IMG/VR virus record: IMGVR_UViG_3300027007_000013
Source of the DNA: a virus
Taxonomy: Duplodnaviria; Heunggongvirae; Uroviricota; Caudoviricetes
Reading direction: 5' to 3' (one strand)
DNA: 64,000 nucleotides
Shown here: positions 7,274-63,166 of the stretch, piece after piece
How positions within the stretch are numbered: position 1 is the first letter of the stretch
Layout: the number at the start of each line of letters is the position of its first letter
Position numbers and translations under genes: made by a program
The notes under the pieces: model-generated
The model's input: the letters and a program-made list of their open reading frames with translations, nothing else
Databases searched by the model: none
Told to the model about the DNA's origin: nothing

Positions 7274-7307
7274 GCACGTACATATACACACGCACATATG
7301 TACGTGC
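7274..7307. repeat. 34-bp palindrome GCACGTACATAT-ACACACGCAC-ATATGTACGTGC, copy 1 of 3 identical
   Basis: perfect 12-bp inverted arms; identical copies at 42371 and 63133. Confidence 0.9.
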
Positions 7308-7641
7308 ACTAATCCATGACATGTTTGGGGGTAAATCGGCATGACCCAAATATACCCTTAGAACAAAACGCGATCGGGGGACGGCGACGGGGTCGATTGA
7401 GACTAAGATACCTATACACAGGCAAAGCTTAAGTATGATTAGCGGTTTTTTCACCTCTCACGATCCTTACATCGTGGTACTGGGTACGAAAGTGTTATAT
7501 AGTACGAGAGGTTACTTTTAGGTACATCGAGTTCGGGTTCCTCCGCCCGCTTGATGCATCCCAACGTAAGTTGGACCGACACTCCGTTCCACGCCAAACC
7601 GGGCCCCCCGGTTTCCGCCCTTCCTCAAGGGCTTTTCAGAC

Positions 7642-7791
7642 ATGCCAATCATCCCCGAAGACTGTCCGCGTTGCGACGAAACCCTCGATGTTCAGATATC
7701 ACCAGCTGAGTGTGTACACTGCGGGTTCTTGCTTTATCGCATGAAGTGGAGCGAAAACCTGTATGAGTGAGTGATGGCGTAGCGATATGTA
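7642..7791 (+). CDS. small zinc-ribbon protein
   Basis: 49-aa ORF MPIIPEDCPRCDE...CVHCG with two CxxC pairs; below the ORF-track size cut-off. Confidence 0.3.
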
Positions 7792-8070
7792 ATGCCAGTC
7801 TGTGAGCTGTGCGGGAGAATACGCGCGTCCTGTGTGCTTGGGTTGACCCAGGAGCTACAGGACGACGACTGGCTCCGCCTGGACGTGAGACAGGTGAAGC
7901 TATCGTGCAACCAGTGTGCCGACACGCTGGTGAGTAAAGGGAAAGCAAGGGAAATGCCGTTAGAGGACGGGGATGCGCACGACATCTGGTACAAGAACTG
8001 TCTCGAAATCACAGACGGGAAGCAGTCGATCTGGGCCGGGTGGGTGCCCGATATGCGGAAGATGGTCTGA
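7792..8070 (+). CDS. hypothetical Cys-rich protein
   Basis: 92-aa ORF with CELCG and CNQC pairs. Confidence 0.4.
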   Translation: MPVCELCGRIRASCVLGLTQELQDDDWLRLDVRQVKLSCNQCADTLVSKGKAREMPLEDGDAHDIWYKNCLEITDGKQSIWAGWVPDMRKMV

Positions 8071-8519
8071 AAGTTTTCTGTAGTTGTGTCCAAGTTTAGT
8101 TGTGAAAGTGGGTTTGGACTGAGTGCAAGCTGGGTTGCGTTTGTGTATGGAAAGTGTCTCGTTTTGCTGAGGGGGGTGAAATCGCTATAGGGGAGTGGAT
8201 TTTGGATAGGGAGATTTTCGGACAAAATCGAGAGATGCTCGTTTAGAGACGCCGCTATTCGGTGGATACAGGCCTCCTACGGGCCTTCTGTGGGCACTTC
8301 AGATCGTCTACGAAGGGCACTCTCGGGGCTTCTCGGGCCTGTTTAGAGGCCGACGAAGCACTATGCGTGGATTCTGTGGCGCGGTATTTGGACGTTTGTC
8401 TATATATTCGCCCAGGACGCGATCTGCGACGTCGTCGGTGCGCCCAGGCGCTCCTGGTGGTAGCACGACGGGTGCGCGCGAACTGTCGATGGAGGGTCCA
8501 GAGTGCTCGTTCTCGCAAA

Positions 8520-8705
8520 AACGCTATCCCAGAGGCGCGTGCCGGCTTCGCGCCGCACCCCGCCGACTGTCGCCGTTGGCTCCTGTCGCCTATCCCTGAG
8601 CTCGTTATTGTCGGCGCGCTATCCCTGTGTCGTGCCGTTCTCGTTATCCTGCTCGCGCTATCCCTGCGCCGAGTGTGCTCGTTGGCGTGAAATGCATATC
8701 CCTTG
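8520..8705. repeat. iteron cluster 1: six copies of CGCTATCCC(TG) interleaved with GCTCGTT
   Basis: direct repeats at about 8522, 8588, 8618, 8643, 8658 and 8695, in a non-coding stretch upstream of the cassette array. Confidence 0.8.
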
Positions 8706-8908
8706 CTATGCGATGTGGAGACATTCCCAGTGCGACGTCGTCGTCTTCCTGTCCACACTCTATCACTATGCCTCACGATGATTGAACGCGCCCCAGCGCC
8801 GGAAACCGGCAACGGCGTGACACCCATCGAACCATGCTACGTCTGTCGATTACCAGCAGTCCTATCAGATATACATATATTTAATACCTTACCAGTCCAA
8901 GGATAAGT

Positions 8909-9277
8909 ATGGCAAGAAAAAGCCACCCGGCGGAGCAGACGTGGGACGAGCGGGTCGTCGAGCAGCTGGAGTCGCTCGAGTACGTCGAGCACGTGCACCT
9001 GGACGGCGGCGAGCGCGACTACATCGCGGGACAGCGCGACGTCGACCGCATGACGTGGGTCGTGAAGCTGGACGAGTCGACGATCCAGCAGATCGAGTTC
9101 GTGGAGGGCGCCGACGAGTTCAGCGAGACGCTGCGGGGCGTGCGCAACGACCTGGAGCTGGAGCTGGGCCTGGCGCCGGGCGACTCGTGGATGGAGTGGG
9201 ACGAGATGGCACGCGGGACGATCTACGTGACGGGCACGCACGACAACCGCCCGGGCGGGAGCGACGTCTTCCGCTGA
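8909..9277 (+). CDS. cassette protein with MARKSHP N-terminus, acidic
   Basis: ATG lies inside the conserved 5' hairpin; 122 aa. Confidence 0.55.
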   Translation: MARKSHPAEQTWDERVVEQLESLEYVEHVHLDGGERDYIAGQRDVDRMTWVVKLDESTIQQIEFVEGADEFSETLRGVRNDLELELGLAPGDSWMEWDEMARGTIYVTGTHDNRPGGSDVFR

Positions 9278-9397
9278 GCGCGGCGTGGCGCGGTTACCCG
9301 GCAACGGTTGGCGTCGAGGGACGTCGGTGGTTCGAGTCCACCGCCGGGCGTTGGGCCGAAAAGACCCGGGACTGGCCCGCCCGAACGGAGCGACAGA

Positions 9398-9702
9398 TGA
9401 GTGAAGAACTCGCGCCCGCGGCGGAGCGGGCACTGGCGGAGGAGCACAGGGACGAAATCGCGCTGACGATCATCGACGACGCCGTCGAGCTGTACGAGCT
9501 CGTGTCGCGTGTCGGCCTCATCGCCGAGGATGCAGCCGCCGAGCTCGAGTTCGTCGACGAGCAGGAGGGCTCGATCGACGACGTCCACATGGCGGTCGAC
9601 ATCCTGAACGAGCTCGACGACAAGCTCGTGTACATGAACCGACAGAAGCGTCATGTCGAGAGCCTGCTGAACGAGCTGGAGCTCGTCGAGGAGGACCTGT
9701 AG
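9398..9702 (+). CDS. hypothetical acidic protein
   Basis: internal ATG of ORF 8941..9702; the upstream part of that ORF is a GC-frame artifact overlapping 8909..9277. Confidence 0.5.
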
Positions 9703-9703
9703 A

Positions 9704-9871
9704 TGCCCGAGATCGAGGTGTCGGGCGACGTCGTCAAGGCGCGCCACTTCGGCGAGGTTGATGGCGAGTACGCGAAGCTCGTTGTCCACCGCGACCTGCT
9801 GGCTGACGACGAGAAGGCGACCGTCATCCTCGACGAGATGCGTGACGCGATCGCGCAGGAGGGCCGCTGAT
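9704..9871 (+). CDS. hypothetical small protein
   Basis: 55-aa ORF MPEIEVSGDVVKARHFGE..., tightly packed in the operon. Confidence 0.4.
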
Positions 9872-10067
9872 GCACGACACGTGTCAGTGTGAGGCGTGCA
9901 AGCTGGAGCGCCAGCGCGAGTACGAAGCGTCGTACCCCGAGCAGGCGCGGCGGGACAAGCTGGAACTGGGCGCTGAGGCGACGACCGAGTTCGCCCGCGA
10001 GGAGGCGCTGCTGCTGAAGACGGGGATGACCGAGCGCGACGCGCGGGCCCGGGGGCTGATCGACTGA
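9870..10067 (+). CDS. hypothetical small protein
   Basis: 65-aa ORF overlapping the upstream stop. Confidence 0.45.
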   Translation: MHDTCQCEACKLERQREYEASYPEQARRDKLELGAEATTEFAREEALLLKTGMTERDARARGLID

Positions 10068-10233
10068 TGACCGCGATGGACGACCTGCGCGTCGAGCGAC
10101 AGCACTCGCGCTACGCGGTCGCGTTGGAGAACATCGAGGCGCTCGCGCACGACGGGCTCGAGCAGATGAGCGTCGAGGAGAAAGACGCGATCCTGCGTGA
10201 GATCGAGACGGTCGCGACGGAGGCGTTCGAATG
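10066..10233 (+). CDS. hypothetical small protein
   Basis: 55-aa ORF MTAMDDLRVERQH... Confidence 0.4.
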
Positions 10234-10662
10234 AGCCGTCCGGCGGAGAAACGCGCGGCCGCGATGATGGAGTTGCTGGAGGAGGACGGGACGATGAGCG
10301 AGGGACACGACGACTCGACCGACCCGGAGTGTTGGCGGGAGTCGTTCCTGGAGAGTGCGTTCGAGGAGGCGTCGACGATGGTGACCCGCGCTTCGATGGC
10401 GTACGACGAGGAGCACGGTGAGATGAACGACGAGATGCACCCGATGGACGTCATCCGCGGGGAGAACCTGCTCCGCGTCTACGCGACGAGTCGGCCGTGG
10501 GCGATCCCGGTCGTGGTGGTCGAGGTCGCAGAGGCGCCGGCGTACTTCGACGAGCACAGCATGCTGACCGACGTTCGGGAAGTGTACGCCCGACGAAAGC
10601 CGGGGCTGTCGGAGGACCCGACGCACGTGAAGATCCAGATTCGTCCCGGGAGGCCACGGTGA
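10231..10662 (+). CDS. hypothetical acidic protein
   Basis: 143-aa ORF. Confidence 0.5.
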   Translation: MSRPAEKRAAAMMELLEEDGTMSEGHDDSTDPECWRESFLESAFEEASTMVTRASMAYDEEHGEMNDEMHPMDVIRGENLLRVYATSRPWAIPVVVVEVAEAPAYFDEHSMLTDVREVYARRKPGLSEDPTHVKIQIRPGRPR

Positions 10663-10835
10663 GCGACGTGGCGCGCGAACCCGGTGAGTCGTCGGTGGCC
10701 GAGATGTCGACGGAGTCGCTGCTGTTCCAGACGGCGATGAACGATCGCTATGGTGGCGAGGTCGCCGACCTGATCGACTGGGATCTCGACGTGGAGATGC
10801 GTCGCGAGCTCGCGTCGCGAGGTGTCGAATGGTAG
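10659..10835 (+). CDS. hypothetical small protein (GTG start)
   Basis: in-frame GTG abutting the upstream stop. Confidence 0.35.
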   Translation: MSDVAREPGESSVAEMSTESLLFQTAMNDRYGGEVADLIDWDLDVEMRRELASRGVEW

Positions 10836-10940
10836 TGTACGCCGCGACAGCCCTGGTCGTCTGGCTCGGTGGCCTGTTCGTCCTGTGGCTCGTGTTCATG
10901 GGGACGAAGCAGACAATCGAGCACAGGAGGGCCGAGTGAT
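10832..10940 (+). CDS. small hydrophobic single-pass membrane peptide
   Basis: MVVYAATALVVWLGGLFVLWLVFMG..., 36 aa. Confidence 0.3.
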
Positions 10941-11199
10941 GGCGAACTTCGGATGGTCGTACCCACCGGGCGCGGCGAACGACCCGGCGGCGCCGTACAA
11001 CGAGCCCGAGCGACCCGAGCCCGGGACTGTGATCACGCACGACGTCGCGGAGGCGTACTGCTCGACCTGTGACGAGACGATCGGGCCGCAATCACCGGAC
11101 GTCGTCGCGGACATGCTCGTCGCAGAGCACGAGGGGCACCTCGTCGAGGTGGAGTCGTGGACGGAGGAGGAAGTGTGGGAGGGTGACGATGCCCGGTAG
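10939..11199 (+). CDS. hypothetical protein with CxxC
   Basis: 86-aa ORF containing CSTCDE. Confidence 0.45.
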   Translation: MANFGWSYPPGAANDPAAPYNEPERPEPGTVITHDVAEAYCSTCDETIGPQSPDVVADMLVAEHEGHLVEVESWTEEEVWEGDDAR

Positions 11200-11353
11200 C
11201 TACGAGCGCCACCTGGACGAGTTCGGCATCTGTCGCTGCGGGGCGTCCCGCTCGGGAACGGAGCCGATGTCGCTGGAGTACCAGGACGACATGACCGGGC
11301 GATGGGTAATCGAGCAGGTGCCGGCGTGCGCTGACTGTTTCGGGCTGCTGTAG
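11189..11353 (+). CDS. hypothetical Cys-rich small protein
   Basis: 54 aa, with CRCG...CADC. Confidence 0.4.
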   Translation: MPGSYERHLDEFGICRCGASRSGTEPMSLEYQDDMTGRWVIEQVPACADCFGLL

Positions 11354-11762
11354 CCCAGCGCCCTTTCCGCTTTCGCGCGCCGCCCCGCGCCCGCCCTGTC
11401 TGGTCCGTCAACTCCGCGAGGTGATAGTAGAGGATCTGATTAAATGCAGGAATCGTGATGTGAATACAACCCATCTACCCCCACCGCCGTGGGCCCTACT
11501 CGGCGACGCCTTCTGACGGCCGTAGCCCCTACCCTCCAGGGTTGGCTCACGGCCCCCCACGCCCCGTGTACCGGGATTCATGCGCCTGTCTACGCCTGTC
11601 TCATTTCATACTCTCCGATGATACGACCCCCTCTGTTTCATCTCCGCGACCCGTCGCGTCAAACCGGCGGTGTATCAGATAGTAGAAACATTTAATATCG
11701 TATCACTCCAAGGATAAGATAGGACACCGGTCAAAACCGGTGGCCAACTGGAGTGACCAGAG

Positions 11763-12221
11763 ATGGCAAACGAGACCCAGGCGACTGAGGCACAGCAGAC
11801 GACCATCGCGGGCGACGTCGACGTCGTCGACCCAACGCAGCACGTCGTGGGCTTCAACGCGAAGACGATGAAGCGCGCGAAGTGGGAGGAGTACGACTTC
11901 GTGGTGACGGAGTCCGGCAACGTCGAGGTGCGCAACGCGTCCTACGGGGACGACGCGGACGAGCACACGTACCACGTGGTGACTGACGCCGCGGGCATCC
12001 CGAAGTGGTGCCTGCACGCGCTGAGCGACGCGCACGAGGACGACTGGAAGCCGTGCCCGGCGATGGCCTACCACGCGGCGAAGAAGAACAAGGCGACGGG
12101 CCTCGAGACCGACGAGCTCGTGGCGCGGGGCGAGTACAGAGTGTGCAAGCACGCTCTCGCCTACGCGCGCAACGAGGCGATCGTTCAGGCGGTCCGCCGC
12201 GTCAAGCAGGGTGACAACTGA
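11763..12221 (+). CDS. SWIM-type zinc-finger-like protein
   Basis: C..H...C..CKH pattern (KWCLHALSDAHEDDWKPCPAMAYH...CKHALAY); preceded by a 5'-hairpin variant and a GGAGTGA Shine-Dalgarno-like element. Confidence 0.5.
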   Translation: MANETQATEAQQTTIAGDVDVVDPTQHVVGFNAKTMKRAKWEEYDFVVTESGNVEVRNASYGDDADEHTYHVVTDAAGIPKWCLHALSDAHEDDWKPCPAMAYHAAKKNKATGLETDELVARGEYRVCKHALAYARNEAIVQAVRRVKQGDN

Positions 12222-12412
12222 TGTCGTGCCCGAATTGCGGCGGGGAGACCGGGCCGAACCCGGTGCGCGACGACCCGCGGACGCCGGCGATGGGCGGGCA
12301 CGATCCGGGACCGACCGTCGTGTTCTGCTCGGCGGAGTGTGTCGAAACGTATGACGGCGACCCCGTGCCGGCCACGTGGGGCATCGCTATCAGCAGCCCG
12401 GAGGGACAGTGA
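12221..12412 (+). CDS. small zinc-ribbon protein
   Basis: MSCPNCGG...CSAEC. Confidence 0.45.
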   Translation: MSCPNCGGETGPNPVRDDPRTPAMGGHDPGPTVVFCSAECVETYDGDPVPATWGIAISSPEGQ

Positions 12413-12639
12413 TGTTCCTGTTGGATGTCTACGCGGACGCTCACGACGAGTACCCGGTGCGGACGCTCGAGGCGACTGGTGTGGGGACGGCGGTGCTGAC
12501 GGCGGCCCGGACGGCCGAGTCCCTCGCGGACGAAGCGTGCCGGCTCCAGGTCGGCGCTGCTGGCGAGGATGAACTGTTCGAGATGTTCCCCGACCCGGGG
12601 CATGGGACCGTGGTGGTCCGGGAGGTCGGTCGCCGATGA
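12412..12639 (+). CDS. hypothetical protein
   Basis: ATG overlapping the upstream TGA. Confidence 0.4.
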   Translation: MFLLDVYADAHDEYPVRTLEATGVGTAVLTAARTAESLADEACRLQVGAAGEDELFEMFPDPGHGTVVVREVGRR

Positions 12640-12830
12640 ACGACGTCGAGTACGCGCTCTCCTGTGTCGAGATCGTGCACGGCTACCGCGATTACGTTCC
12701 GGAGGAGGTGCTGATGGGCGAGCCCGAGGTCGAACGGTTCGACAGTGCAGTGGCGAAGCTCGAACGCGCGATCGAGATGATCGATCCCGACGACCTCGCA
12801 GCCTACCACCAGCAGCGGGAGGCCGAGTGA
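12636..12830 (+). CDS. hypothetical acidic protein
   Basis: 64-aa ORF. Confidence 0.45.
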   Translation: MNDVEYALSCVEIVHGYRDYVPEEVLMGEPEVERFDSAVAKLERAIEMIDPDDLAAYHQQREAE

Positions 12831-13009
12831 TGGTGGCCCGGCCGCGGCGCTGGATGGTGGTGACCGACGCCTGGACTGACGCTGAGTCGCCCGTGTTCCG
12901 TCGCATCCGGTCGAAGTTGGAGGCGCACAAGCTGGCACAGTTAACCGTGCGAGCGTACGACGATGGACGCCCGGTCGATGTCGTGGAGGACCTGAGCGAT
13001 GAGCGGTAA
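12830..13009 (+). CDS. hypothetical protein
   Basis: internal ATG of ORF 12569..13009. Confidence 0.4.
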   Translation: MVARPRRWMVVTDAWTDAESPVFRRIRSKLEAHKLAQLTVRAYDDGRPVDVVEDLSDER

Positions 13010-13124
13010 CGTGCGCTGGCGGGGCCAGGAGTTCGGCGACGGCCAGTTCATCGTCTGGGAGGGTGACCCGAACACGTCGAAGGCGTACGTGGCCGGGACG
13101 CCAGTCCCGAACGAGCCCTGAGCT
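13002..13124 (+). CDS. hypothetical small protein
   Basis: 40-aa ORF followed by the conserved 3' boundary element. Confidence 0.3.
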
Positions 13125-13333
13125 GTTCCGCTTTTGCGCCGCGCCCCGCCGCTCGCCGACCCTGTCGTGTTTTCCTGTCGCCCCCTCGCGCGGCGTGGTG
13201 CGGCAACCCGGTGCCCTTGCGATGTCTCGGGTTTACCAGCAGTATCAAGTTATTAACATATCTTTATACTCGCTCCTCTCTTAGGTTAGGATAGGCACTG
13301 GGGAAACCCGGTGGCCATCTGGAGTGAAATCGA

Positions 13334-14998
13334 ATGGCAAGCAGTGACAACGACGTGGAGTACAGCACGGGACAGATCGGCGTCGACGAGGAGCGTATCA
13401 TCGACGAGCTGATCTTCAGCCAGGCGGAGGGCATCGTCGACGGCATCCGCGAGCTGGCGCAAAACGGCGTCGACGCACCCGGCTCGACGAAGGTCGAGAT
13501 CAACGTGACCCCGGAGCGGACGGTCGTGGTCGACGACGGAGACGGGATGGACCTGAGCGACGAGTCGGTCCGGGAGTTCCTGACGAACCTGGGCCAGTCG
13601 ACGAAGATCGACGATGAGGAGACGATTGGCCAGTTCGGCATCGGCTTCGGTCAGGCGCTGGCGGTCGGGAAAGTGATAGTGCACAGCCAGGACTCGAAGG
13701 TCGAGTTCGACGCGAAGAACTGGTTCCGCGACTACCGGCTGTACGAGGCCGAGGAGCACTTCGACGGCACGAAAGTGACGATCGAGCACTACGAGGACGA
13801 GGTGCCCGAGGCGGGCGCGAGTGAGTGGTCCGACCACCTCGCCGACATCCGCACCCGGTTCCAGTACATGGAGCTGGTCAAGGGCGTTGAGGTGTGGCTG
13901 AACGACGAGCAAGTATCCGGATACGACCCGGCTGAGGACGATGAGAACGCCACCGTCTACGACTCGGAACTGGCGTACATGGTCCTGAAGCACGAGAGTT
14001 ACGACTGGATAACGGTGTACTCGGCGGGCCTGAAAGTCACGGACGTCCGCGGCCACGGCATCGGGGGCACCGTGATCACGAAGCGCAACCTCGAGCTGAA
14101 CACGGCGCGGAACAGCATCCGGTCTGGGTGCGAGGTCTGGCCCGAGGTCGAGGCCGAGATCGAGGAGGCACGTGTCGAGCTCCTGGACGCCGTCTCTGAT
14201 TCGAAGCTGACGAACAGTGGTCGCGCGGCCGTGGGCCGCCTGGCCGCCCAGGGACACGAGGGGTTCGAGGACCGCGAAGTGTTCAAGCTGGCGAACGGTG
14301 AGATGACCACCCTCGAGACGATCCAGAGCCGAGACAGCATCATGTTCGCTGACCAGACGGACAAGGCCGGGGGCAAGCTGGCTGACCACGGGAAGACCGT
14401 CCTGATGCGCAGCGATGGCGCGGTTCAGGCGATTCGGGAAGCGGTGAACCTCGGTCAGCTGAGCATCCCGGAGACGAAAGACGTCCAGGCGTCGGCGGCC
14501 GCGATGGGCATCGCGAACGGCTACGAGATCCTCGAGCCCGAGGAGTTCCACAGCAAGCCCCTGGCGATGGCCCGCATCCTGCGGGAGAAGATGGAGCAGT
14601 ACAGCCCCTACGCGCTGGACCGGGAGATCGTGGCCGGAGCGGATAGCGGGGCCAACGCGTGGACGAAGCCGGACCCGTCGACCCTGAACCCGGTGGAGAC
14701 GGCGGCGATCGCCGACTCTGAGTTCGAGTCGTTCGTCGCGATCACGGACACCGCCTACAGCCAGTTGGCGAGCGAGGTCCTCGTGCTCGAGCTGTGGCGC
14801 ATCCTGGCTCACGAGTTCGCCCACACGGAGGATTCGACGGGTGAGCCGTCCCACGGGTCGGGCTTCGCGATGCGCTTCCGCAAGATCCTCGACAAGACCC
14901 AGCCGGCGGCCGTCGAGCTCCTGAACGAGATTCGCCAGGATGGTGTCACGGCAACGTTCGAGCGATACGACCACGGCGTCCCACACGCCCGCGCCTAA
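13334..14998 (+). CDS. GHKL-family (Bergerat-fold) ATPase with a C-terminal HExxH motif
   Basis: N-box ELAQNGVDA, G1 VVDDGDGM and G2 GQFGIGFGQA resemble Hsp90/MutL/MORC-type HATPase motifs; C-terminal LAHEFAHTED. Preceded by the cassette promoter and hairpin. Confidence 0.7.
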   Translation: MASSDNDVEYSTGQIGVDEERIIDELIFSQAEGIVDGIRELAQNGVDAPGSTKVEINVTPERTVVVDDGDGMDLSDESVREFLTNLGQSTKIDDEETIGQFGIGFGQALAVGKVIVHSQDSKVEFDAKNWFRDYRLYEAEEHFDGTKVTIEHYEDEVPEAGASEWSDHLADIRTRFQYMELVKGVEVWLNDEQVSGYDPAEDDENATVYDSELAYMVLKHESYDWITVYSAGLKVTDVRGHGIGGTVITKRNLELNTARNSIRSGCEVWPEVEAEIEEARVELLDAVSDSKLTNSGRAAVGRLAAQGHEGFEDREVFKLANGEMTTLETIQSRDSIMFADQTDKAGGKLADHGKTVLMRSDGAVQAIREAVNLGQLSIPETKDVQASAAAMGIANGYEILEPEEFHSKPLAMARILREKMEQYSPYALDREIVAGADSGANAWTKPDPSTLNPVETAAIADSEFESFVAITDTAYSQLASEVLVLELWRILAHEFAHTEDSTGEPSHGSGFAMRFRKILDKTQPAAVELLNEIRQDGVTATFERYDHGVPHARA

Positions 14999-15280
14999 GC
15001 GGGCCGTGGCGCGGCAACCCGGCGTCGGACCGGCGTGATGCTGCGGATCGAATCCGCCCGACGTCCTGGCGGCCTTCGCTACTGTCAAGTGAAGTGACCG
15101 CCTACACCCGCCTGGATGGGTCGGAGCCGTTTGTGGTAGGCTCATAGGCGGTGCGCCCGACCCGTCCCACTCCAGGTGGCCACGGCGTTTGCGATCGGGC
15201 TGGCTCCCTCGGGAGCTAAGTGGTCGCGACCGCGGGGTATCGCTCCCCGTGTCACCTTTCGTACTGATTGCTCTGATACC

Positions 15281-15318
15281 GTGTACGTACGTACAGACGC
15301 GTGTGTACGTACATACAG
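15281..15318. repeat. GTACGTAC-containing palindromic element (variant of the 34-bp palindrome family)
   Basis: GTGTACGTACGTACAGACGCGTGTGTACGTACATACA, downstream of the GHKL gene. Confidence 0.6.
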
Positions 15319-15416
15319 CCTTTCGGAATCCTGACTTGTCAGAACCCTTTATTACCGTATCCTGAGAAGGATTACATGGACCTCGAGAAAGCCGAGGCCA
15401 GCTGGAGTGACCAGAG

Positions 15417-15728
15417 ATGACAGATACAGCACGACTTGTCGTGAATGGCTATGTGGAACCGAGCGAGCGAGATACCCGAATTGTGTCGATCCTGGGGAGT
15501 CTGGCCGGCGTCCCGGACGGCCACCAGTTCGACTATCGCGGGATGACGATCGAAAAGCGCGTGACGACCGAGCGAGCGCGGCGCGAACCCGAGATCGCTG
15601 TCTACGACCCTGACGGCGAGTACGTCGACCAGTTCCAACCGCTCCTGTTCTCGTCGTACGAGATCGTGGAGATGCTCGACGAGATGCGAGCCTACTGGGT
15701 CGAGGAGAGTCGCGCCACGGCACTGTGA
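15417..15728 (+). CDS. hypothetical acidic protein
   Basis: preceded by a 14-codon upstream ORF (15376..15420) inside the hairpin module and a GGAGTGA element. Confidence 0.5.
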   Translation: MTDTARLVVNGYVEPSERDTRIVSILGSLAGVPDGHQFDYRGMTIEKRVTTERARREPEIAVYDPDGEYVDQFQPLLFSSYEIVEMLDEMRAYWVEESRATAL

Positions 15729-15860
15729 TCGTGGCCGCGACAGCGGTCGCAGTCGTGGTCGTCGGCCTGTGGCTGTTCTACGCCCTGGTCGTCTACCTCG
15801 AGTTGTGACCGAAAACTGGTATTTACCGCGTGGGGCCTACCGTGACATGGAGTACCAGAG

Positions 15861-16181
15861 ATGCCCCGACCGATCGAACGGATGGGTTGTGTTGCCGACC
15901 GACTGAGCGACGAGTGGGAGCTCGATGACATCGTGATCGAGCCGTCGGCGACCGTGACAGCAATCTACCGTCACGTATCCGGGGCGTACGTCATGTGGTC
16001 GGCCGACCCGGGACACACGGTACAGTTGTGGGAGGCCGACGGATCGGTCGAGACGTGGCTCGATGACGACGAGTTCGCTGACCTGGATTCGGCGACCGAA
16101 ACTGTCCAGACCTGCGTGGAAGTCATCGAACATGCGACCAACCGCGCCCTACCACCAGCAGCGTCGACCCCGCGCCCGTAA
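15861..16181 (+). CDS. hypothetical acidic protein
   Basis: 106 aa, with the GGAGTACCAGAG leader. Confidence 0.5.
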   Translation: MPRPIERMGCVADRLSDEWELDDIVIEPSATVTAIYRHVSGAYVMWSADPGHTVQLWEADGSVETWLDDDEFADLDSATETVQTCVEVIEHATNRALPPAASTPRP

Positions 16182-16356
16182 CGTTCCGCTTTTCCGCACC
16201 GCCTGCGCCAACCTGTCGACTTCCCGATTCAGTCTGACCTTGCTACGTTGTGTGATTACGGGCAAACACCTCAGATATACATATATTAATATTCACTCCA
16301 CCCTTAGGTAGAAGTAGGCCAGGAAAACTGGCCCACCCGAACGGAGATAGAGAAAG

Positions 16357-16506
16357 ATGCGATACAGAGTCTACGGTACGCACAGTGGCAACGAGTTTCA
16401 GGCACCTGTCGACGCAGTCGATGCGAGTGACGCGGTCGACGAGTTCCTCGAGTCGGTCGAGGACCCGACCGAGTTCAGCGACGTCGAGGCCGAGGTCTGG
16501 GGGTAG
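16357..16506 (+). CDS. hypothetical small acidic protein
   Basis: 50-aa ORF 10 nt after the GGAG that follows a hairpin variant lacking an ATG. Confidence 0.4.
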   Translation: MRYRVYGTHSGNEFQAPVDAVDASDAVDEFLESVEDPTEFSDVEAEVWG

Positions 16507-16509
16507 CCG

Positions 16510-16680
16510 ATGTCTGGCGAACCCCACACGGGCCCGATCGACGCACACGTGTGCGAGCTCGAACCGCTCGATGGCGACGAGTTCGCGACCGTCCACAGCA
16601 AGGGCCAGTGCACGATCTGCGGGACCGTGACGACGCCGGCCCGGGGCGTGAAGAACGCGAAGCGACAGCGGATGTGGTAG
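16510..16680 (+). CDS. small zinc-ribbon protein
   Basis: CELEP...CTICG. Confidence 0.35.
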   Translation: MSGEPHTGPIDAHVCELEPLDGDEFATVHSKGQCTICGTVTTPARGVKNAKRQRMW

Positions 16681-16682
16681 CG

Positions 16683-16991
16683 ATGGAGACAGAGAACGTC
16701 GCGATCGTCTCGCTGGAGGCGGCTGAAGTTGCCCGACGCGAGTTGGACATCCTGATTGAACAGACTGGCGGCCCGAACGCCGGGATCGATGAGTCGTGCT
16801 CGCCGATGGCCCTCGCGCGCCAACGCATCGAGCGCCTGGAAGGCGAAGGGATAGACCCGTTCACCGTGGCGACTGTGCTGCAAGTCATGTACGGCGTCGC
16901 GGAGGAGCGTGGTGTCGAGATCAGTAGCGCCGACCCGTTGCAGGACGACGTCTTCCGGGCACGAAGCGAGTTCGAGTCGGATCTCGAGTAG
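16683..16991 (+). CDS. hypothetical acidic protein
   Basis: internal ATG of ORF 16551..16991. Confidence 0.45.
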   Translation: METENVAIVSLEAAEVARRELDILIEQTGGPNAGIDESCSPMALARQRIERLEGEGIDPFTVATVLQVMYGVAEERGVEISSADPLQDDVFRARSEFESDLE

Positions 16992-17398
16992 TCTCGACCC
17001 TGCTGCGGTTTGCATCGTTCCTGGTGGTAGTGAGCGGTTCGATTCCGTGACGATGCCTGGCCCCCGAGCCCTCAGACGATACGTTGATAGGTTCGCGGGG
17101 CCTATGCTCACGCGGCATCCGTTAGTGATGCCGTTCCGTTCGGGTGGGATAGCACGCGTCGGGCTGTCTCGGCAAGGGCAACCACGTCAGTCGAGATCAG
17201 AGGCTCGTGCAAACCCGTTGCCCGGGGCATTTGTCCCCGGGCGCCCTTTGGTACCGCCTCGAGCGAGAGCTCTTGTTCTCTGACATCGCGTATCCGCGCC
17301 CGAGCGCGCAAACCCGGTGTGATCATGCTACGATCCTGTTCTATCAGCAATATTATCTGACAAAGATATTATTATATCAGCTCCAGCCTAAGGTAAAG

Positions 17399-17520
17399 TA
17401 TGGCACGAAAAAGCCACTCGAGCGGAGATAGCGTGAACAAGCAGCGGTACCGCGGCAACGAGTCGACCGCCGACTTCGACCTGGGCGACGCACTGAGCCA
17501 GATCTCGGAGAGCCGCGAGG
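17399..17520 (+). CDS. small acidic protein, MARKSH start
   Basis: 40-aa ORF beginning inside the hairpin element. Confidence 0.35.
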
Positions 17521-17532
17521 AGGACGAGGACG

Positions 17533-17742
17533 ATGAGTGAGCGCATGCACCGGGAGCCGAGCAAGTTCTCGGCTGACGAACTGTCAATCGGCGACGAGAT
17601 CGTGGTCGCTGGCCTCGTCCACGAGGTCATGTCGGTGGGAGAGCCCGGGAAGCAGTGCCTCGTGCGGACGGACCGGGGCGCGTTCTCGAAAGACGGCCTG
17701 AGTAGCGGGATCGACGACGGCTCCGTGGAGGTGCGCGACTGA
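17533..17742 (+). CDS. hypothetical protein
   Basis: 69-aa ORF. Confidence 0.45.
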   Translation: MSERMHREPSKFSADELSIGDEIVVAGLVHEVMSVGEPGKQCLVRTDRGAFSKDGLSSGIDDGSVEVRD

Positions 17743-17942
17743 TGCCGATGGCATGGGGCCTCGACGAGTCGTGCCCAGACTGTGGCGAGGACGAACTGAT
17801 CTGGTGGACGAAAGACGAGACTGAACGTGTCGACGAGGTGAAGGTGGACTGCACCGCCTGCGGGATGGCGTTCCCGAAGGAGATCGTCGAGAAGACTGAC
17901 GACACTCCTCGCGAGGAGATTGCACGGGGGATCGTCGCATGA
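17742..17942 (+). CDS. zinc-ribbon protein
   Basis: CPDCGEDE...CTACG. Confidence 0.45.
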   Translation: MPMAWGLDESCPDCGEDELIWWTKDETERVDEVKVDCTACGMAFPKEIVEKTDDTPREEIARGIVA

Positions 17943-18565
17943 GCTTCGAGTTCGACGAGGACTACGAGCTCGATGCGATGTTCGAGGGCGCGACCGAGTT
18001 CGACCCCGAGTACCAGCGCGAGCGGATGCGCGAACAGCTGGAGATCGCGGCCTGGGACATCCGTGAGGGACACGTCGAGGACGGCGAGACTTGGACGATC
18101 GAGGAGCCCAGCGTGCTGACGCCGGACCCGCTCGACGACACCGACTTCGAATGGACGCTGCGCTTCGACGACATCGACGTGCTCGGTGACGAGAGTGTTC
18201 CCGGTGTGTTCGAAGTGATGGACCCGGAGGGAGAGTACGCCGGTCAGTTCGGTGCGTACGAGGATGGCGAGGAGCTGTTGAACGCGCTGGGCCACATCGC
18301 CCAGACGTTCCACCGCGACCGGGAGATCGCGAAGTTCCACGCCCGCGTCGACGAGATGGAGCCCGGCGACAGTCACCTGCTCCCGAGTGGGAAGATCGAG
18401 CTGCGCGATGCCGAGAAGGCCGCGATCTTCGGCCCGGGTTACGAGGAGCGGGTCGTGACCAACGCCGACAAAGTGACGCCGAAACTCGTCAAGCGCGTCG
18501 AGGGCGACTGGCGGGCTGAGATGCGCGAGAAGTACCGCGGGACCCCGATGGAGGAGGAGTTCTGA
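17939..18565 (+). CDS. hypothetical acidic protein
   Basis: 208-aa ORF. Confidence 0.55.
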   Translation: MSFEFDEDYELDAMFEGATEFDPEYQRERMREQLEIAAWDIREGHVEDGETWTIEEPSVLTPDPLDDTDFEWTLRFDDIDVLGDESVPGVFEVMDPEGEYAGQFGAYEDGEELLNALGHIAQTFHRDREIAKFHARVDEMEPGDSHLLPSGKIELRDAEKAAIFGPGYEERVVTNADKVTPKLVKRVEGDWRAEMREKYRGTPMEEEF

Positions 18566-18741
18566 ATGACCTACGAGATTCCGGCCAACGCAAGTGACAG
18601 AGACGAACGTATCGCCGAGCGGATGAACGAGATGCTGTTCAACGAGTTCGACATCCCGCTCGATGATTTCGAGATCCTGAGTGAAGAAGCAGGCTCGTTC
18701 GAGATCACGATCGAACCAGGTGTCGGGACGGTGGACTGATG
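18566..18741 (+). CDS. hypothetical small protein
   Basis: 58-aa ORF. Confidence 0.4.
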
Positions 18742-18879
18742 GGCGTCCCCGTGGGTGAGGCTGATGGTGAGTTCGCTGTGGAGCTGACGTGCGTCGCCTG
18801 TGAGGGCACGTTCGAGACCGATGAGACGATGCCCAACGATTGCCCCGAGTGTGGGCGGCTGAGCTACACCGCGGCCTGA
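18739..18879 (+). CDS. small zinc-ribbon protein
   Basis: CVACEG...CPECG. Confidence 0.35.
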   Translation: MGVPVGEADGEFAVELTCVACEGTFETDETMPNDCPECGRLSYTAA

Positions 18880-18947
18880 CCGCGCTCCGCTTTTGCGCAC
18901 CGCCCCGTCGAATGAGTTATCAGTTTTGCGGTAGTATCGCCGAATAG

Positions 18948-19460: not shown

Positions 19461-19474
19461 TGGGTTACGTCTGG

Positions 19475-19620
19475 TGCGTATCCCACGTGTCGCGCGCGTT
19501 TCACGGGTCGCGTATCCCGCGCGCGTTATCCCAGGTGCGTATCCCGGGCCCTCGTTCTCGTGTACAGCGTATCCCTTGTGAGAGCACGCGAGAGCCCTCT
19601 CCCCCAGTAGAGATACGCAC
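19475..19620. repeat. iteron cluster 2: five direct copies of GCGTATCCC plus one inverted copy
   Basis: copies at about 19477, 19510, 19523, 19537, 19567, with an inverted copy at 19611; immediately 3' of the HTH-HNH gene. Confidence 0.8.
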
Positions 19621-21146: not shown

Positions 21147-21179
21147 CGGGGCCGCCGCGGCCCCCTCGCCGACGCGTGT

Positions 21180-21209
21180 GTACGTACATACGCGCCCATA
21201 TGTACGTAC
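21180..21209. repeat. palindrome GTACGTACATA-CGCGCCCA-TATGTACGTAC (family variant)
   Basis: perfect 11-bp arms. Confidence 0.8.
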
Positions 21210-21330
21210 GCCCATCTCGAACCCTCACGTGCCCGAGCGCGGCAAACCGGCACCCTGCGACGTCCGTCACAAGTCGACACATATCAGCCGCTTTACGTGT
21301 CTTTAATACCCTACCAGCCCAAGGTATAGT

Positions 21331-23084: not shown

Positions 23085-23086
23085 AG

Positions 23087-27369: not shown

Positions 27370-27645
27370 GGCCCCGGCTCCCGCCTCGGCCTACGCGCGC
27401 CAAGGCGCCGCAACCCGGCAACGCGTGTGGGTACGTACCGACGTGTGTGTATGTACAGACGCCGACCCCGAACCCCGATTCGCCCGACCGGCTGCACTAC
27501 CACCAGCAGCGACCGGCTCAGCCGACAAAAAACGGGCCCACATCACGACGGTTTTCACGCGCGGAATCCAAAACGAACGCCTCAGGGCTCCTACGCGCGG
27601 AATGTGACCAGAAACTATATACCTGTCAAAGTACAAGTATGTAAT

Positions 27646-35460: not shown

Positions 35461-35477
35461 CCACTACCACCAGAAGC

Positions 35478-35514
35478 GTGTGTACGTACATACGCGCCCA
35501 TACGTACATACACC
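35478..35514. repeat. GTACGTACATAC repeat element (palindrome-family variant)
   Basis: GTGTGTACGTACATACGCGCCCATACGTACATACAC, directly after an ACCACCAG motif. Confidence 0.6.
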
Positions 35515-42370: not shown

Positions 42371-42404
42371 CGCACGTACATATACACACGCACATATGTA
42401 CGTG
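42371..42404. repeat. 34-bp palindrome, copy 2 of 3 identical
   Basis: identical to 7274..7307. Confidence 0.9.
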
Positions 42405-42902
42405 CAAAAGGGTAGAGAGTCTGAAAGGGATTAGGTAGGAAAGTTTTCATTCCGACGTGTGCCGACCCTGTTTCCAGACCGTAACCCCCCACCTCTCGGG
42501 CCTGTAAACCACTCTCCACGCAATCCGGCCGAAAAGGCCCTCTAAACCGCACTCTCAGAGCTTCTATCCTTTGAATATGCCATGTCTGAGCGACATTCTG
42601 GGTATCCAGACTGGTTTCCCCTCACCAACCACTCATGTCCGATACCGCAGGATAACCACCCTGACACTCGTACCACCAGGAACGAAGGCCCGTATTCCTT
42701 CAAGATATACAGAGACAAGCAGAGTGGAATCGATAGACTGCACTGACCTCCACGCATATACGAAAAACGACAGAACAGAAATCTTTAATATCACATCCCA
42801 CATATTTCTATTCACCCACAGCTACCCAGTGGGACGTGCTCCCCGAGTGCGTAGAACGGAGATATACATGAAGGAATGGCGACAGAAGTGGAGGAATAGT
42901 CT

Positions 42903-43784: not shown

Positions 43785-43787
43785 GTC

Positions 43788-44117: not shown

Positions 44118-44128
44118 TGGGGTGACCA

Positions 44129-51036: not shown

Positions 51037-52255
51037 CCTCGTCGACGACGGTCATCGTCCCACGCCGGAACGAGACACGTTCCGTCACGTCTGGGCGAGA
51101 GAACGCGGGCCCTGGGTCGTCCTTGAGCGCATCAAAGGGACGCGAATGGAGAGCGGTGAGATCGTCGCTGAGTGCGATGACTACCTGGAGGCACTCGCGT
51201 TCGCTGTCGATTCCGAGACAGAGGACTGGGTTATCACGGAGATCGCTGGTCAGTGCTGCAACTGTGGACAGCTGGTTGTCGTCGACGAGCTCGCTGAGGA
51301 GCCGACGTGTCCACACTGCAACGACGTCCTCTGGCTGGCCGCCGAGCAGCGACGGTTGGCCGAGTTTGCCCGCGACCGGCTGGCGTTCGATATGTACTGG
51401 GGTGTTGCCTCTGGCGCACAGCGGAAAGCGATCCGTGTCCTTGCGCACGGATTCGACCATCGCGAGCCAGACAATCTCAACATCATGCTGAACTACGCGA
51501 CGCAGAATAATCAGCTCCTGACCGAGAAGGGACTGGAGCTCATGACGAACGTCGAGACCCTGTTTATCGACTCTGGCGGCTACTCGTTCTTCGAGCGAGA
51601 GGGTGGATACGACACTTCAGACTGCGAGTACCTGCGATACATCGCCCGCGTGCAACCTGATTACTTCGCACTCAGGGATTACCCGTGTGAGCCTGACATC
51701 CTGGATGCACGCGACACGACCGTCCAATACCACCAGCAACGGACGACAGAGAAAGCCCAGATCCTGCTCGATATGCTTGATGACTTTGCGATCACGGCCA
51801 CACCAGTTGCGGTCGTGCAGGGGTGGTCGCCCGATGATTATCGGTCACACCTCCGGCAACTCTATCGCGCTGGTGTCCTCGACGAGGTGGAGCACATCGG
51901 CATTGGGACCCTCTGTGGTCGCGAAGACGTTGCCCAGATCGCGACCATCGTCGAGGCCGTCAGAAAGAGTGTTGGACCGGACTTCAAAATACACGGGTTC
52001 GGTGTCAAGCGAGAGGCGTTAGAACGCCCGGACGTCGTCGAGTCACTCGACTCGGCCGACACACTCGCGTACAGCATGAAGCCGATGTACGATTCAATCG
52101 CTACTGGTGGTATGGTCGCGAACACGTGGAAACACGAAGCGCGAGGGTTCCTGGATTACTATGCCACGATCCACGAGTCGCTCAGACGAATCGAGCACGG
52201 GGAAGCCGACGAAGATATAGTCGCCCAACAGACGCTTGCATCATATGGTGACTGA
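51026..52255 (+). CDS. tRNA-guanine-transglycosylase-family protein, DpdA-like DNA-guanine transglycosylase
   Basis: LFIDSGGYSF matches the TGT substrate-Asp motif (bacterial FTDSGGFQ); VVESLDSAD matches the region of the second Asp; N-terminal CxxC...CxxC. Confidence 0.6.
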   Translation: MATNLVDDGHRPTPERDTFRHVWARERGPWVVLERIKGTRMESGEIVAECDDYLEALAFAVDSETEDWVITEIAGQCCNCGQLVVVDELAEEPTCPHCNDVLWLAAEQRRLAEFARDRLAFDMYWGVASGAQRKAIRVLAHGFDHREPDNLNIMLNYATQNNQLLTEKGLELMTNVETLFIDSGGYSFFEREGGYDTSDCEYLRYIARVQPDYFALRDYPCEPDILDARDTTVQYHQQRTTEKAQILLDMLDDFAITATPVAVVQGWSPDDYRSHLRQLYRAGVLDEVEHIGIGTLCGREDVAQIATIVEAVRKSVGPDFKIHGFGVKREALERPDVVESLDSADTLAYSMKPMYDSIATGGMVANTWKHEARGFLDYYATIHESLRRIEHGEADEDIVAQQTLASYGD

Positions 52256-61576: not shown

Positions 61577-61695
61577 TCGCGTAGACTCACCGTTTTTCGG
61601 ATAGCTTGAAACCAAACGAGTGGAAGCCACTCGTGTATGAAAACACTCTTAATCTGATAGTACCAAGAATGTGATAACGCCTCCCCAGGTGTCAC

Positions 61696-62505
61696 ATGGA
61701 CAAAGAAACAACGGAAGTGTCGGCCCACACCAACTGGGTCCACCCGCAGCTGCGAAACGCGGGCTTCGATATCTTCGACGTGGAGGGGTACAGTCTGGAC
61801 GAGGACGCGGATTCGGTCGAGCTGTTCATCGACCGCCGGAGAGTCCGCGACGTCCGAGGGTACAACGCTGGCCGAGTCTGGCGCGAACTACAGCAGACAG
61901 TCGACGATACAGAACTGGAGGCGAAGGAGCGGCTCGCCACGCGCGCAGGCTGTGACTACGTCGTCGCGGTCTATGACGACAAACGCGTCCGAGTGTACCG
62001 AGTAGACAGCCAGGGTGTCGAAACGATCACCGAGGAACTGTCCTTCCCCGAGTTCGGTGTCTGGGTGTTCAGCCACAACTCGACGACCGAGCTCGGTAAG
62101 GAGTTCATCCACGACGACGACTTCCCGACGCTGGACGCGGCCCTGAGACAGAACGGGACGCCGTGGCCGCCGAACCTCGATGGGTTCTGGTACGACGATG
62201 ATGGGGTGCAGTGTCTCATCGAGTATCAGACCACGAACGTCACGTCCCCGGCGAATCACTCGAACAACCGCTATTTCTCACAGGACCACGGCCGCTGGAA
62301 ACACCTCTGGGGGCTGGCACAGGCGCTCGACCTCCCGCTCGTGATCGTCGTCTGGTCGCCCAACGAGAAGTACCAGAACGAAGTGAAGGTAAAGATCGTC
62401 CACGAGGTCAACTTCAGCGGTCGTGACCGCGGCCTGTCTTACTCCAGTGTGCAGCTGCTGGAGCCAGCGCAGGTGAGTGACGAGATCCGGATGGTGGCCC
62501 AATGA
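61696..62505 (+). CDS. hypothetical protein
   Basis: 269 aa. Confidence 0.5.
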   Translation: MDKETTEVSAHTNWVHPQLRNAGFDIFDVEGYSLDEDADSVELFIDRRRVRDVRGYNAGRVWRELQQTVDDTELEAKERLATRAGCDYVVAVYDDKRVRVYRVDSQGVETITEELSFPEFGVWVFSHNSTTELGKEFIHDDDFPTLDAALRQNGTPWPPNLDGFWYDDDGVQCLIEYQTTNVTSPANHSNNRYFSQDHGRWKHLWGLAQALDLPLVIVVWSPNEKYQNEVKVKIVHEVNFSGRDRGLSYSSVQLLEPAQVSDEIRMVAQ

Positions 62506-62870
62506 CGTTCGAGTACCAGCACGCCCGGGCCGACCGGGTCGTCGACGGTGACACGATCTGGATGACAGTGGATGTTGGGTTCTACCAGTACGTGAAGATC
62601 CCGTTCCGACTCATCGACGTCGATACGCACGAGATCCACTTCGTTAGCCACGATAGCGAGGAGTACAAGCAGGGAATGGTGGAGAAACAGTTCGTCATCG
62701 ATTGGCTCACTGAAGCTGAGCTCGGTCGTGGCGACTGGCCGCTGGAGCTGATCACATACGGCACCGGAAAGTACGGTCGGTGGTTGGCCTACGTCAAGCG
62801 CAAGAGTGACGGCGCGATCCTGAACGAGGACCTGCTCGACGCGTTCGACGACATTCGGTACGGTGAGTGA
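62502..62870 (+). CDS. staphylococcal-nuclease-like thermonuclease
   Basis: RVVDGDTI, RLIDVDTHE and GKYGRWLAYV match the SNase catalytic and calcium-site motifs. Confidence 0.65.
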   Translation: MTFEYQHARADRVVDGDTIWMTVDVGFYQYVKIPFRLIDVDTHEIHFVSHDSEEYKQGMVEKQFVIDWLTEAELGRGDWPLELITYGTGKYGRWLAYVKRKSDGAILNEDLLDAFDDIRYGE

Positions 62871-63129
62871 GATGGGGCGTGAGAGCGTACCGGTCAGTCG
62901 TCGCGACCTGCTGATCGCCCTGGGCGCCGGGTCCGTAACACTGGCTGGCGACTTCGTCAGAACGAGAACGACAGTCGTTGGGGACGAGTGTGAGCCAGTG
63001 ACGGTGTGTACACCCACCGGATACGGTGACTGTGGCTACGGTGAGGGTCCCTTTGGCGGAACCGACCCGAGCGCCGACTTGCTCGGCTACAGTGAGGGTG
63101 GGTACGGGACCGGAGGATACGGCGGATAG
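62863..63129 (+). CDS. Gly/Tyr-rich secreted protein with a twin-arginine signal
   Basis: SRRDLLIALGAGSVTLAG is a Tat-type motif. Confidence 0.45.
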   Translation: MSEMGRESVPVSRRDLLIALGAGSVTLAGDFVRTRTTVVGDECEPVTVCTPTGYGDCGYGEGPFGGTDPSADLLGYSEGGYGTGGYGG

Positions 63130-63132
63130 GCG

Positions 63133-63166
63133 CACGTACATATACACACGCACATATGTACGTGCA
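63133..63166. repeat. 34-bp palindrome, copy 3 of 3 identical, between convergent genes
   Basis: identical to 7274..7307. Confidence 0.9.

Follow-up and report, generated by a model that had tools for sequence, protein, structure and literature searches.

A family of alternating purine-pyrimidine palindromes at gene boundaries in a clade of haloarchaeal tailed viruses or plasmid-prophages

Repetitive extragenic palindromic (REP) sequences and bacterial interspersed mosaic elements (BIMEs) are imperfect palindromes of 20-40 bp that lie outside genes, often 3' of a gene or between convergent genes, and that occur in multiple copies per replicon which are alike within a genome. Here we describe a repeat family of this general kind in a 64,000-nt stretch of viral DNA (IMG/VR record IMGVR_UViG_3300027007_000013; hereafter the window), together with its counterparts in two further IMG/VR contigs, R12 and R30, and in a Halobaculum plasmid, H. 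The family consists of short, extragenic, imperfect palindromes, seven and one mini-copy in the 64 kb of the window and 13 in the 148.9 kb of H, and the roles proposed for REP sequences and BIMEs, namely protecting the 3' ends of mRNA, attenuating expression within operons and binding gyrase, overlap with those considered below. The elements differ from REP sequences in belonging to an archaeal virus or plasmid, in their strict alternation of purines and pyrimidines (RY) and in their fixed length. The REP-associated tyrosine transposase (RAYT, a Y1 transposase) that accompanies REP sequences had no Pfam match in the window and none is annotated on H, and the presence on host chromosomes that is typical of REP sequences was likewise not found in a search of 185,579 species genomes.

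Several other described systems share individual properties with this family. In haloarchaea, an alternating 'RY box' reportedly modulates the bop promoter, a result said to come from the DasSarma laboratory in 1996. Like the elements described here, the RY box is an unbroken RY alternation in haloarchaeal regulatory intergenic DNA, and supercoiling-dependent non-B DNA has been reported in such regions; it is, however, an 11-bp, single-copy tract within a promoter, whereas the present elements are 36-38 bp long, palindromic and multicopy, usually lie nearer the upstream stop codon and form a conserved family. In their placement the elements recall termination sites of Haloferax volcanii, a haloarchaeon in which hairpins also occur near gene ends, and in which the canonical signal is a T stretch that gives 95% termination against 59% for a hairpin alone (PMC7237163). 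Unlike those hairpin sites, the elements belong to one sequence family, half of them lack a T stretch and their loop is constrained. The class I and II repeats of HF2 are likewise intergenic families in a haloarchaeal tailed virus that are conserved in position in relatives, but they are AT-rich promoters with mapped start sites (PMC8707807), whereas the present elements have no TATA box at a usable, conserved distance; the true analogues of the HF2 repeats in the window are separate promoter-like families, D4-D9. Finally, the loxP, FRT and dif sites resemble the elements in their 34-bp size, 12-13-bp inverted arms and asymmetric centre, a centre that is the same within a genome and different between genomes, but their centre measures 6-8 bp against 10-18 bp here, and no recombinase gene was found in the window or on H and no rearrangements in the relatives.

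The window encodes a large terminase, a B12-type ribonucleotide reductase, ThyX, a DpdA-like transglycosylase and an Eco57I/MmeI-like methyltransferase-endonuclease; a putative portal protein, which has no Pfam match, was assigned from its position beside the terminase. Its acidic proteins, haloarchaeal domains of unknown function (DUFs), promoter-like boxes ~30 nt before gene starts and lack of CTAG identify it as part of a haloarchaeal tailed virus, and a megablast search of the window against public phage records returned no match. R12 (IMG/VR contig 3300027007_000012, 88.7 kb; loci designated L001, L002 and L006) is collinear with the window and 78-83% identical to it. H, which was reached via a terminase homologue, is 'unnamed3' (NZ_CP058532.1), a circular plasmid of 148,857 bp from the cultured strain Halobaculum halophilum Gai3-2; it encodes ParA/ParB, DNA polymerase B, terminase, tape-measure and baseplate genes, has no annotated integrase, and looks like a plasmid-prophage. 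R30 (IMG/VR contig 3300027007_000030, 58.1 kb) is syntenic with parts of H outside the window, and this synteny, together with a summed length of 146.8 kb for R12 and R30, suggests that the two contigs are probably one genome.

The most regular member of the family is a 34-mer, GCACGTACATATACACACGCACATATGTACGTGC, that occurs in three exact copies on the + strand of the window (7274-7307, 42372-42405 and 63132-63165), where 100 dinucleotide-preserving shuffles gave an expectation of 0. The original prediction, made from the window alone, had reported these three copies, two of them with coordinates that we corrected by one nucleotide (from 42371 to 42372 and from 63133 to 63132). A shorter core, GTACGTACATA, matched 18 times in the window with at most one mismatch (0.43 expected). 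Four variants predicted near 15281, 21180, 27421 and 35478 proved to be real, as a repeat finder places all seven sites in one family (D6), and the perfect 11-nt arms claimed for the 21180 variant were located at 21180-21190 and 21199-21209. The elements, and two features built on or around them, are as follows:

7273..7309, + strand: RY element copy 1, a 37-nt RY run containing the exact 34-mer; counterparts at R12 L002 4084-4119 and H 72352-72389.
7256..7325, + strand: outer inverted repeat AACATGTCA...TGACATGTT around copy 1, followed by TTTGGGG; kept in R12 and H.
42371..42406, + strand: RY element copy 2, a 36-nt run; counterparts at L001 18012-18047 and H 107682-107717.
63130..63166, + strand: RY element copy 3, a 37-nt run with TTTT after it; counterpart at R12 L006 15620-15655.
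15280..15317, + strand: variant element with RY runs of 16 and 21 nt; counterparts at L002 11938-11958 and H 79642-79675.
21172..21211, + strand: variant element with RY runs of 24 and 15 nt, 25 nt past the stop of a 38-codon gene.
27419..27460, + strand: degenerate variant with a longest RY run of 17 nt and a weak dyad; no R12 counterpart.
35476..35513, + strand: variant element with RY runs of 22 and 15 nt; counterparts at L001 8500-8521 and H 100610-100641.
6912..6924, + strand: 13-nt mini-copy CGTACGTACACAC (GTACGTACACAC mini-element), fused to a copy of the CCACCAG motif (described below) at 6893-6909.

Among the less regular copies, the element at 35476 begins with 20 nt that form a near-perfect palindrome and separates a putative small terminase gene (34786-35460) from the large terminase gene (35533-37176). 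The variant at 21172 lies inside a window-specific segment with no R12 counterpart, and the 27419 copy is the weakest of the seven, with a predicted fold no better than that of shuffled sequences (z = -0.6). The outer inverted repeat around copy 1 has a predicted dG of -28.7 on the + strand and -33.0 on the - strand.

All seven elements are intergenic in a gene model that was built from codon usage, refined by eye and assigns 80.4% of the window to coding sequence, leaving 19.6% non-coding (P ~1e-5). Likewise, 13 of 13 H copies lie between coding sequences listed by PLSDB, in a table without RNA genes and pseudogenes. The claim that every copy sits a few bases after a stop codon held for six of the seven, which begin 20, 25, 49, 15, 5 and 0 nt past a stop, copy 2 being the one 5 nt past the stop of a DUF5802 gene; it failed for the 15281 copy, which lies 281 nt past a stop, behind a conserved non-coding stretch. 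Elements are usually nearer the upstream stop than the next start. The long non-coding stretches predicted to follow the copies at 7274 and 42372 are present (524 and 496 nt, respectively), and the 63132 copy does sit between convergent genes, whose stops are 0 and 5 nt away.

Comparison of the copies within and between genomes revealed that alternation is strictly maintained at their variable centre. The three identical copies form unbroken RY runs of 37, 36 and 37 nt in which alternation continues through the supposed loop, whereas the longest RY run in 100 dinucleotide-preserving shuffles averaged 16.7 nt, with a maximum of 25. Every RY run of at least 14 nt in the window is intergenic. When the window, R12 and H are pooled, nine runs reach 30 nt or more, each of them 36-38 nt long; these 36-38-nt runs have the unbroken alternation, well above chance length, by which a Z-DNA tract is recognised. 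The long copies conform to the consensus TGYACGTAC-(RY)9-GTACGTRCA, whose 9-bp ends are conserved while the central 18 nt vary yet always alternate. Where copies at matching sites differ between genomes, 39 variable columns contain only transitions and four contain a transversion, and for a subset limited to independent sites the counts are 26 and 2 (P = 3.4e-7, given a genome-wide transition share of 47%). Between the window and H, all 16 differences in 72 bases are transitions (P = 2.7e-7, genome-wide share 39%), where ~12 transversions would be expected at the divergence of the flanks. As these expected transversions are all missing, they are likely being removed, and a mutational bias toward transitions could not account for their absence. 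Dyad symmetry exceeds what alternation alone provides: each long copy forms 12-16 of 18 possible Watson-Crick pairs against an expectation of 9, and pooling the five distinct long sequences gives 73 of 90 pairs. Taken together, the pattern of substitutions indicates that selection acts on unbroken alternation, dyad symmetry, constant length and the 9-bp ends rather than on primary sequence. The element is a variant form of extragenic palindromic repeat, defined by this selected purine-pyrimidine alternation.

The family is retained in relatives, so that its absence from related genomes, which the original prediction had named as part of what would refute it, does not apply: it is present in R12, R30 and H, with counterparts at matching intergenic sites for five of the seven window elements in R12 and four of seven in H, and element sites are kept across the three lineages. 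Of the 13 elements on H, five are perfect RY runs of 36-38 nt; copy 3 is not present there and its two flanking genes abut. Outside this group the distribution is narrow. The family pattern had no match in 185,579 species genomes, matched only R12 and R30 in metagenomes besides unrelated low-complexity DNA, and was found only in these contigs in an IMG/VR pattern search; an IMG/VR search for the exact 34-mer and an 18-mer core gave no match, and more distant haloviruses, with reductases 54-56% identical, have almost no long RY runs. The repeat family belongs to a clade of ~150-kb haloarchaeal tailed viruses or plasmid-prophages.

Within each genome the copies evolve in concert. In R12, the copies at sites 2 and 3 share five differences relative to those of the window; in R30, copies a and b match at each of the 36 nt of the element; and the H copy at 5248 is almost identical to that at 36727, while the R30 pair and these H counterparts differ between the two genomes. 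Identity among copies ends sharply at the element edge, and gene conversion between copies would be the simplest cause of the homogenisation. A proposed role as a hotspot for recombination between modules found no support. When synteny was checked for breaks at the elements, R12/H synteny ran through five of the seven (sites 1, 2, 3, 15281 and 35478), and the remaining two, 21180 and 27421, lie within window-specific segments, away from the segment edges. The sole coincidence with a breakpoint involves no full-length copy: R12 homology starts at 6899, exactly at the CCACCAG motif fused to the 13-nt mini-copy at 6912-6924.

The strict alternation of an otherwise variable centre is what every model must explain, and for this reason we favour, tentatively, an element that would punctuate transcription-unit boundaries by forming a structure in the DNA itself (Z-DNA or a cruciform). 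To our knowledge, the capability to form Z-DNA is the only well-known property that alternation confers, and with the added dyad a cruciform would also be possible. In the several-molar salt of haloarchaea and under transcription-driven negative supercoiling, a 36-bp RY tract might flip to Z-DNA or extrude a cruciform. Placed after a gene and before the next promoter, it could absorb supercoils from neighbouring transcription units or, alternatively, act as a roadblock that stops or attenuates read-through; either way it would serve as a boundary or insulator between transcription units, to which a transcript hairpin might make a secondary contribution. The steps from alternation to Z-DNA in vivo, and from there to insulation or blocking of transcription, would lean on published work. 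Short alternating tracts form Z-DNA in Halobacterium plasmids, and Z-DNA reportedly blocks RNA polymerases in vitro (a finding said to be that of Peck and Wang in 1985). This structural reading, the transcript hairpin, the protein site and the functionless repeat considered below are not mutually exclusive.

Several points weigh against the structural reading. Z-DNA or a cruciform at the elements is itself predicted from the sequence, and the tracts contain several TA and AT steps, which are unfavourable to Z-DNA. The copy between convergent genes should meet positive supercoiling, which opposes both structures; Z-DNA by itself leaves the dyad symmetry and the conserved ends unexplained; and the copies of the R lineage break the alternation once (CGCCC) and yet are retained. 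Three further points speak at the same time for a hairpin in the transcript: TTTT follows the copies at window 63132, R30 a and H 107682 by 4-6 nt and R30 b by ~21 nt, TTT closes the extended site-1 hairpin in the window and R12, and two arm pairs, identified by hand, have changed on both sides between the window and H (A-T to G-C and T-A to C-G).

The original prediction had suggested a terminator or 3' stabilising hairpin. In a fuller form of this reading, a transcript stem-loop at the gene end would act as terminator, attenuator or 3' stabiliser by stopping or pausing the archaeal RNA polymerase or by blocking 3'-to-5' decay, and inside operons it would tune the ratio of upstream to downstream product as bacterial REP hairpins do. 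We regard this as possible, though on the unlikely side. The placement on which the prediction rested largely stands. Six of the seven copies begin 0-49 nt past a stop and one lies between convergent genes; for six of the seven, strong stems are predicted on either strand (dG -16.7 to -33 kcal/mol, z -2.7 to -7); in alignment A7 the asymmetric centre of each of the nine copies points the same way with respect to the gene upstream; and hairpins do terminate transcription in Haloferax volcanii, the 59% quoted above being for one that was tested (PMC7237163). What fits poorly are the patchy T-runs, the operon positions and the alternating loop. A hairpin loop has no reason to alternate, yet the centre varies by transitions only. 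In A7, which comprises the nine closest copies, 10 of 12 stem pairs are invariant, and compensatory changes are missing from the other two, in which U·G, C-G and C·A occur; by comparison, the 14 start-codon hairpins of the same window, which serve as a positive control for covariation, have at least six different complementary stems. Mismatches on the coding strand comprise 14 A·C and 8 G·T, the opposite of what is expected of a plus-strand RNA stem.

The T-runs are equally uneven. TTT or longer occurs within 25 nt after four of eight window copies (background 0.18), half of the window copies thus lacking a T-run, and the run present at H 107682 is missing at its window counterpart, 42372. Bacterial-type intrinsic terminators, taken as a G+C-rich stem-loop followed by at least 5 T within ~8 nt, were not recognised at the elements: none of the three elements within 5000-24999 was picked up when that range was scanned with a consensus, the stems mix A/T and G/C, and TTTT within 8 nt occurs only at 63132. 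Archaeal oligo-T terminators are defined by a coding-strand T stretch at the 3' end, T5 being best, and a separate T-run module (CCGCTTTTGCGCC..., ~11 copies in the same genome) resembles this canonical archaeal terminator. One copy lies between the terminase subunit genes and one R30 copy inside a baseplate module, and as these are likely operons, full termination there would be odd. On H, where almost every gene points in one direction, the copies are found in either orientation, and one of them lies upstream of parA and not after a gene. Rfam at gathering threshold had no match in the whole window, with permissive settings on 7250-8950, 14950-15450 and 42350-42950 the only Rfam matches were chance ones to models of microRNA hairpins, and a tRNA scan of the window found none.

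A dimeric DNA-binding protein had also been suggested, and we retain it as a rival, albeit a rather doubtful one, as the outer 9-bp ends are conserved; it would be sequence-specific and would read the half-sites TGYACGTAC and GTACGTRCA, fixed 18 bp apart. Candidates would include a viral regulator, a roadblock protein, a topoisomerase or gyrase, and a recombinase. Invariant ends around a variable centre at a length fixed in three lineages are what such a protein would require. The arms are conserved as sequence without covariation, the centres are the same within a genome and different between genomes, a pattern that paired recombinase sites would show, the gene complement includes several helix-turn-helix proteins, and a second motif, with a version particular to each genome, is joined to elements at several sites. 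We also count in favour of a protein site that eukaryotic topoisomerase II has a preference for alternating purine-pyrimidine DNA and that gyrase binds the REP elements of bacteria. Contacts at the ends only would, however, leave the alternation of the 18 central bases unexplained, and the shorter variants at 35476, 15280 and 27419 have been retained at matching sites despite the lack of one half-site. Nor was a partner enzyme detected: integrase, resolvase and RAYT had no Pfam match in a scan of almost all the models for the 113 genes predicted in the window, and no integrase, recombinase or RAYT-type transposase is annotated among the 218 features of NZ_CP058532.1. A recombinase core site was rejected, with no cognate recombinase found and no rearrangements bounded by the sites in R12 or H. 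A GTAC-directed nuclease, proposed from the GTAC cores, is not borne out by the composition of the window, in which GTAC is not avoided (345 observed against 327 expected).

It is improbable that the elements are functionless, that is, decayed (GTAC)n-type microsatellites or small selfish palindromes that are tolerated nowhere but between genes and that recombination has spread or homogenised. A (GTAC)n tract does alternate and is palindromic, GTACGTACGTAC is the commonest 12-mer on H (20 copies), copies are homogenised within genomes with sharp edges, and the sites at 21180, 27421 and L002 18657 are lineage-specific; but the 36-38-nt length is held across sites and genomes, sites are conserved between genomes that differ by 20-30%, transversions are absent where ~12 are expected, no copy was found in the species genomes or in viral or metagenome collections beyond this clade, and no transposase partner was found. 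A host-derived repeat (pattern missing from 185,579 species genomes), a CRISPR repeat or solitary unit (no array in the window, pattern unmatched in the same genomes) and a promoter (no TATA/BRE-like AT box at the conserved spacing of ~26 nt from a start site, copy 3 between convergent genes, and in R12 a 7-nt insertion and a replaced AT-rich part ahead of the terminase gene) were each rejected.

The second motif to which elements are fused is a dispersed sequence of ~17 nt, whose version in the window is (CA)CTACCACCAG(C/A)AGCG. No 10-mer is commoner in the window than CTACCACCAG; TACCACCAGMA is present 23 times, where 0.01 would be expected, and TACCACCAG occurs 32 times while TGCCACCAG never does. 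The sites in the window, at least 32, include 7231-7247, 12801, 16147, 22491, 27495, 33353 (- strand), 35462, 39017, 48223, 51725, 58975, 61090 (- strand) and 63763; they fall on both strands, in genic and intergenic DNA, and are enriched near stop codons. The motif adjoins palindromes directly at 6893 and 35462, and likewise in R12 and R30; at 7231 it lies 25 nt upstream of the element and at 27495 downstream of one. The copy that meets the element between the terminase genes reads as follows:

35462..35478, + strand: motif copy CACTACCACCAGAAGCG, abutting the 35476 element.

Each genome has its own version. R12 carries GATGCCACCAG at the same places as the window motif, with the switch seen at no fewer than 17 matching sites, including within the reductase, DpdA and portal genes, and the version on H is ACATGCCACCAC, with 23 copies of ATGCCACCAC. 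This genome-specific dialect points to a sequence-recognition system for which we know of no described counterpart in archaeal viruses. The suggestion that unrelated viruses share a dialect, so that the host dictates it, was withdrawn, R30 being syntenic with H outside the window. A search of genome contigs for CACTACCACCAGCAGCG, aimed at a host or provirus, returned only scattered single chance bacterial matches. On the opposite strand, the constant part of the motif contains GCTGGTGG, the Escherichia coli Chi octamer, probably by coincidence.

The window contains further features near these repeats and elsewhere. Fourteen small early genes share a promoter-like repeat with a TATA-like box ~30 nt upstream, with starts at 8909, 17400, 19762, 20112, 20712, 21030, 21331, 22101, 22845, 23747, 24336, 25719, 26794 and 27646. 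These are the genes with the start-codon hairpins, which begin at the second base of the AUG, have an A-rich loop and are complementary in every stem (e.g. UGGGA/UCCCA, UGGC/GCCA and AUGGAAU/AUUCCAU); the hairpin accounts for their shared N-terminus, M-(G/A/E)-x-K-(S/N), and looks like a structured 5' end of leaderless mRNAs. A module, CCGSTTTTSCGCCGYGCCCCGYCG, lies 7-95 nt past the stops of early genes, at 8542, 13128, 18887, 20542, 20930, 21707, 22521, 24695, 25372, 26640 and 27924, and is likely the canonical T-stretch terminator of this virus; it is followed by repeated spacer modules (GCGCGGCAACCCGGTG; ACCATGCTACG...TTACCAGCAGTATCAG). The non-coding stretch that ends at the 15281 element (14999-15280) comprises ~280 nt of G+C-rich sequence with no open reading frame and has 87% column identity with R12, above the 78% of the surrounding block; it is a candidate non-coding RNA, with no Rfam match even at a permissive threshold. 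Past copy 2, a non-coding 41-mer, TTCCGACGTGTGCCGACCCTGTTTCCAGACCGTAACCCCCCA (42449-42489), is 88-97% identical in R12, has two copies in R30 and resembles the window repeat family D18 (CCCCTGTTTC...); it may also bear a loose resemblance to the CRISPR repeats of haloarchaea. The window (42894-44127) and H share a cassette of two small genes plus an SPFH/Band-7 gene; R12 lacks it, and the flanks abut there.

CTAG is absent from the window (63 expected) and from the 148.9-kb H plasmid, and CTGCAG and GGATCC are absent from the window (12 and 6.6 expected), which looks like restriction avoidance. The gene for the Eco57I/MmeI-like methyltransferase-endonuclease (1172 residues; 3309-6827, - strand) lies in a window-specific segment. 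The DpdA-like transglycosylase (PF23859) and its neighbouring genes occupy 49349-52255 and suggest that the viral DNA carries a 7-deazaguanine modification. R12 has insertions of ~1.1 kb in the large terminase and ribonucleotide reductase genes (L001 8890-10004 and L006 11331-12401) that are missing from the window (at 35859 and 59904); LAGLIDADG and intein-splicing domains in the terminase homologues P0004 and P0006 identify these insertions as inteins.

A selected function of Z-DNA in prokaryotes and their viruses is a standing question, and haloarchaea would be the likeliest setting for Z-DNA because their cytoplasm holds several molar salt. A more specific form of the structural reading, which we put forward as a long shot, is that the elements are selected Z-DNA or Z-DNA/cruciform switches of three Z-helical turns that would serve as insulators or roadblocks, acting together with the dispersed 17-nt motif read by a virus-encoded factor. 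As one member genome resides in the cultured Halobaculum halophilum Gai3-2, the question is directly testable. If the elements were instead terminators or attenuators, they would constitute a second, hairpin-based class of transcription termination in archaeal viruses, beside the T stretch.

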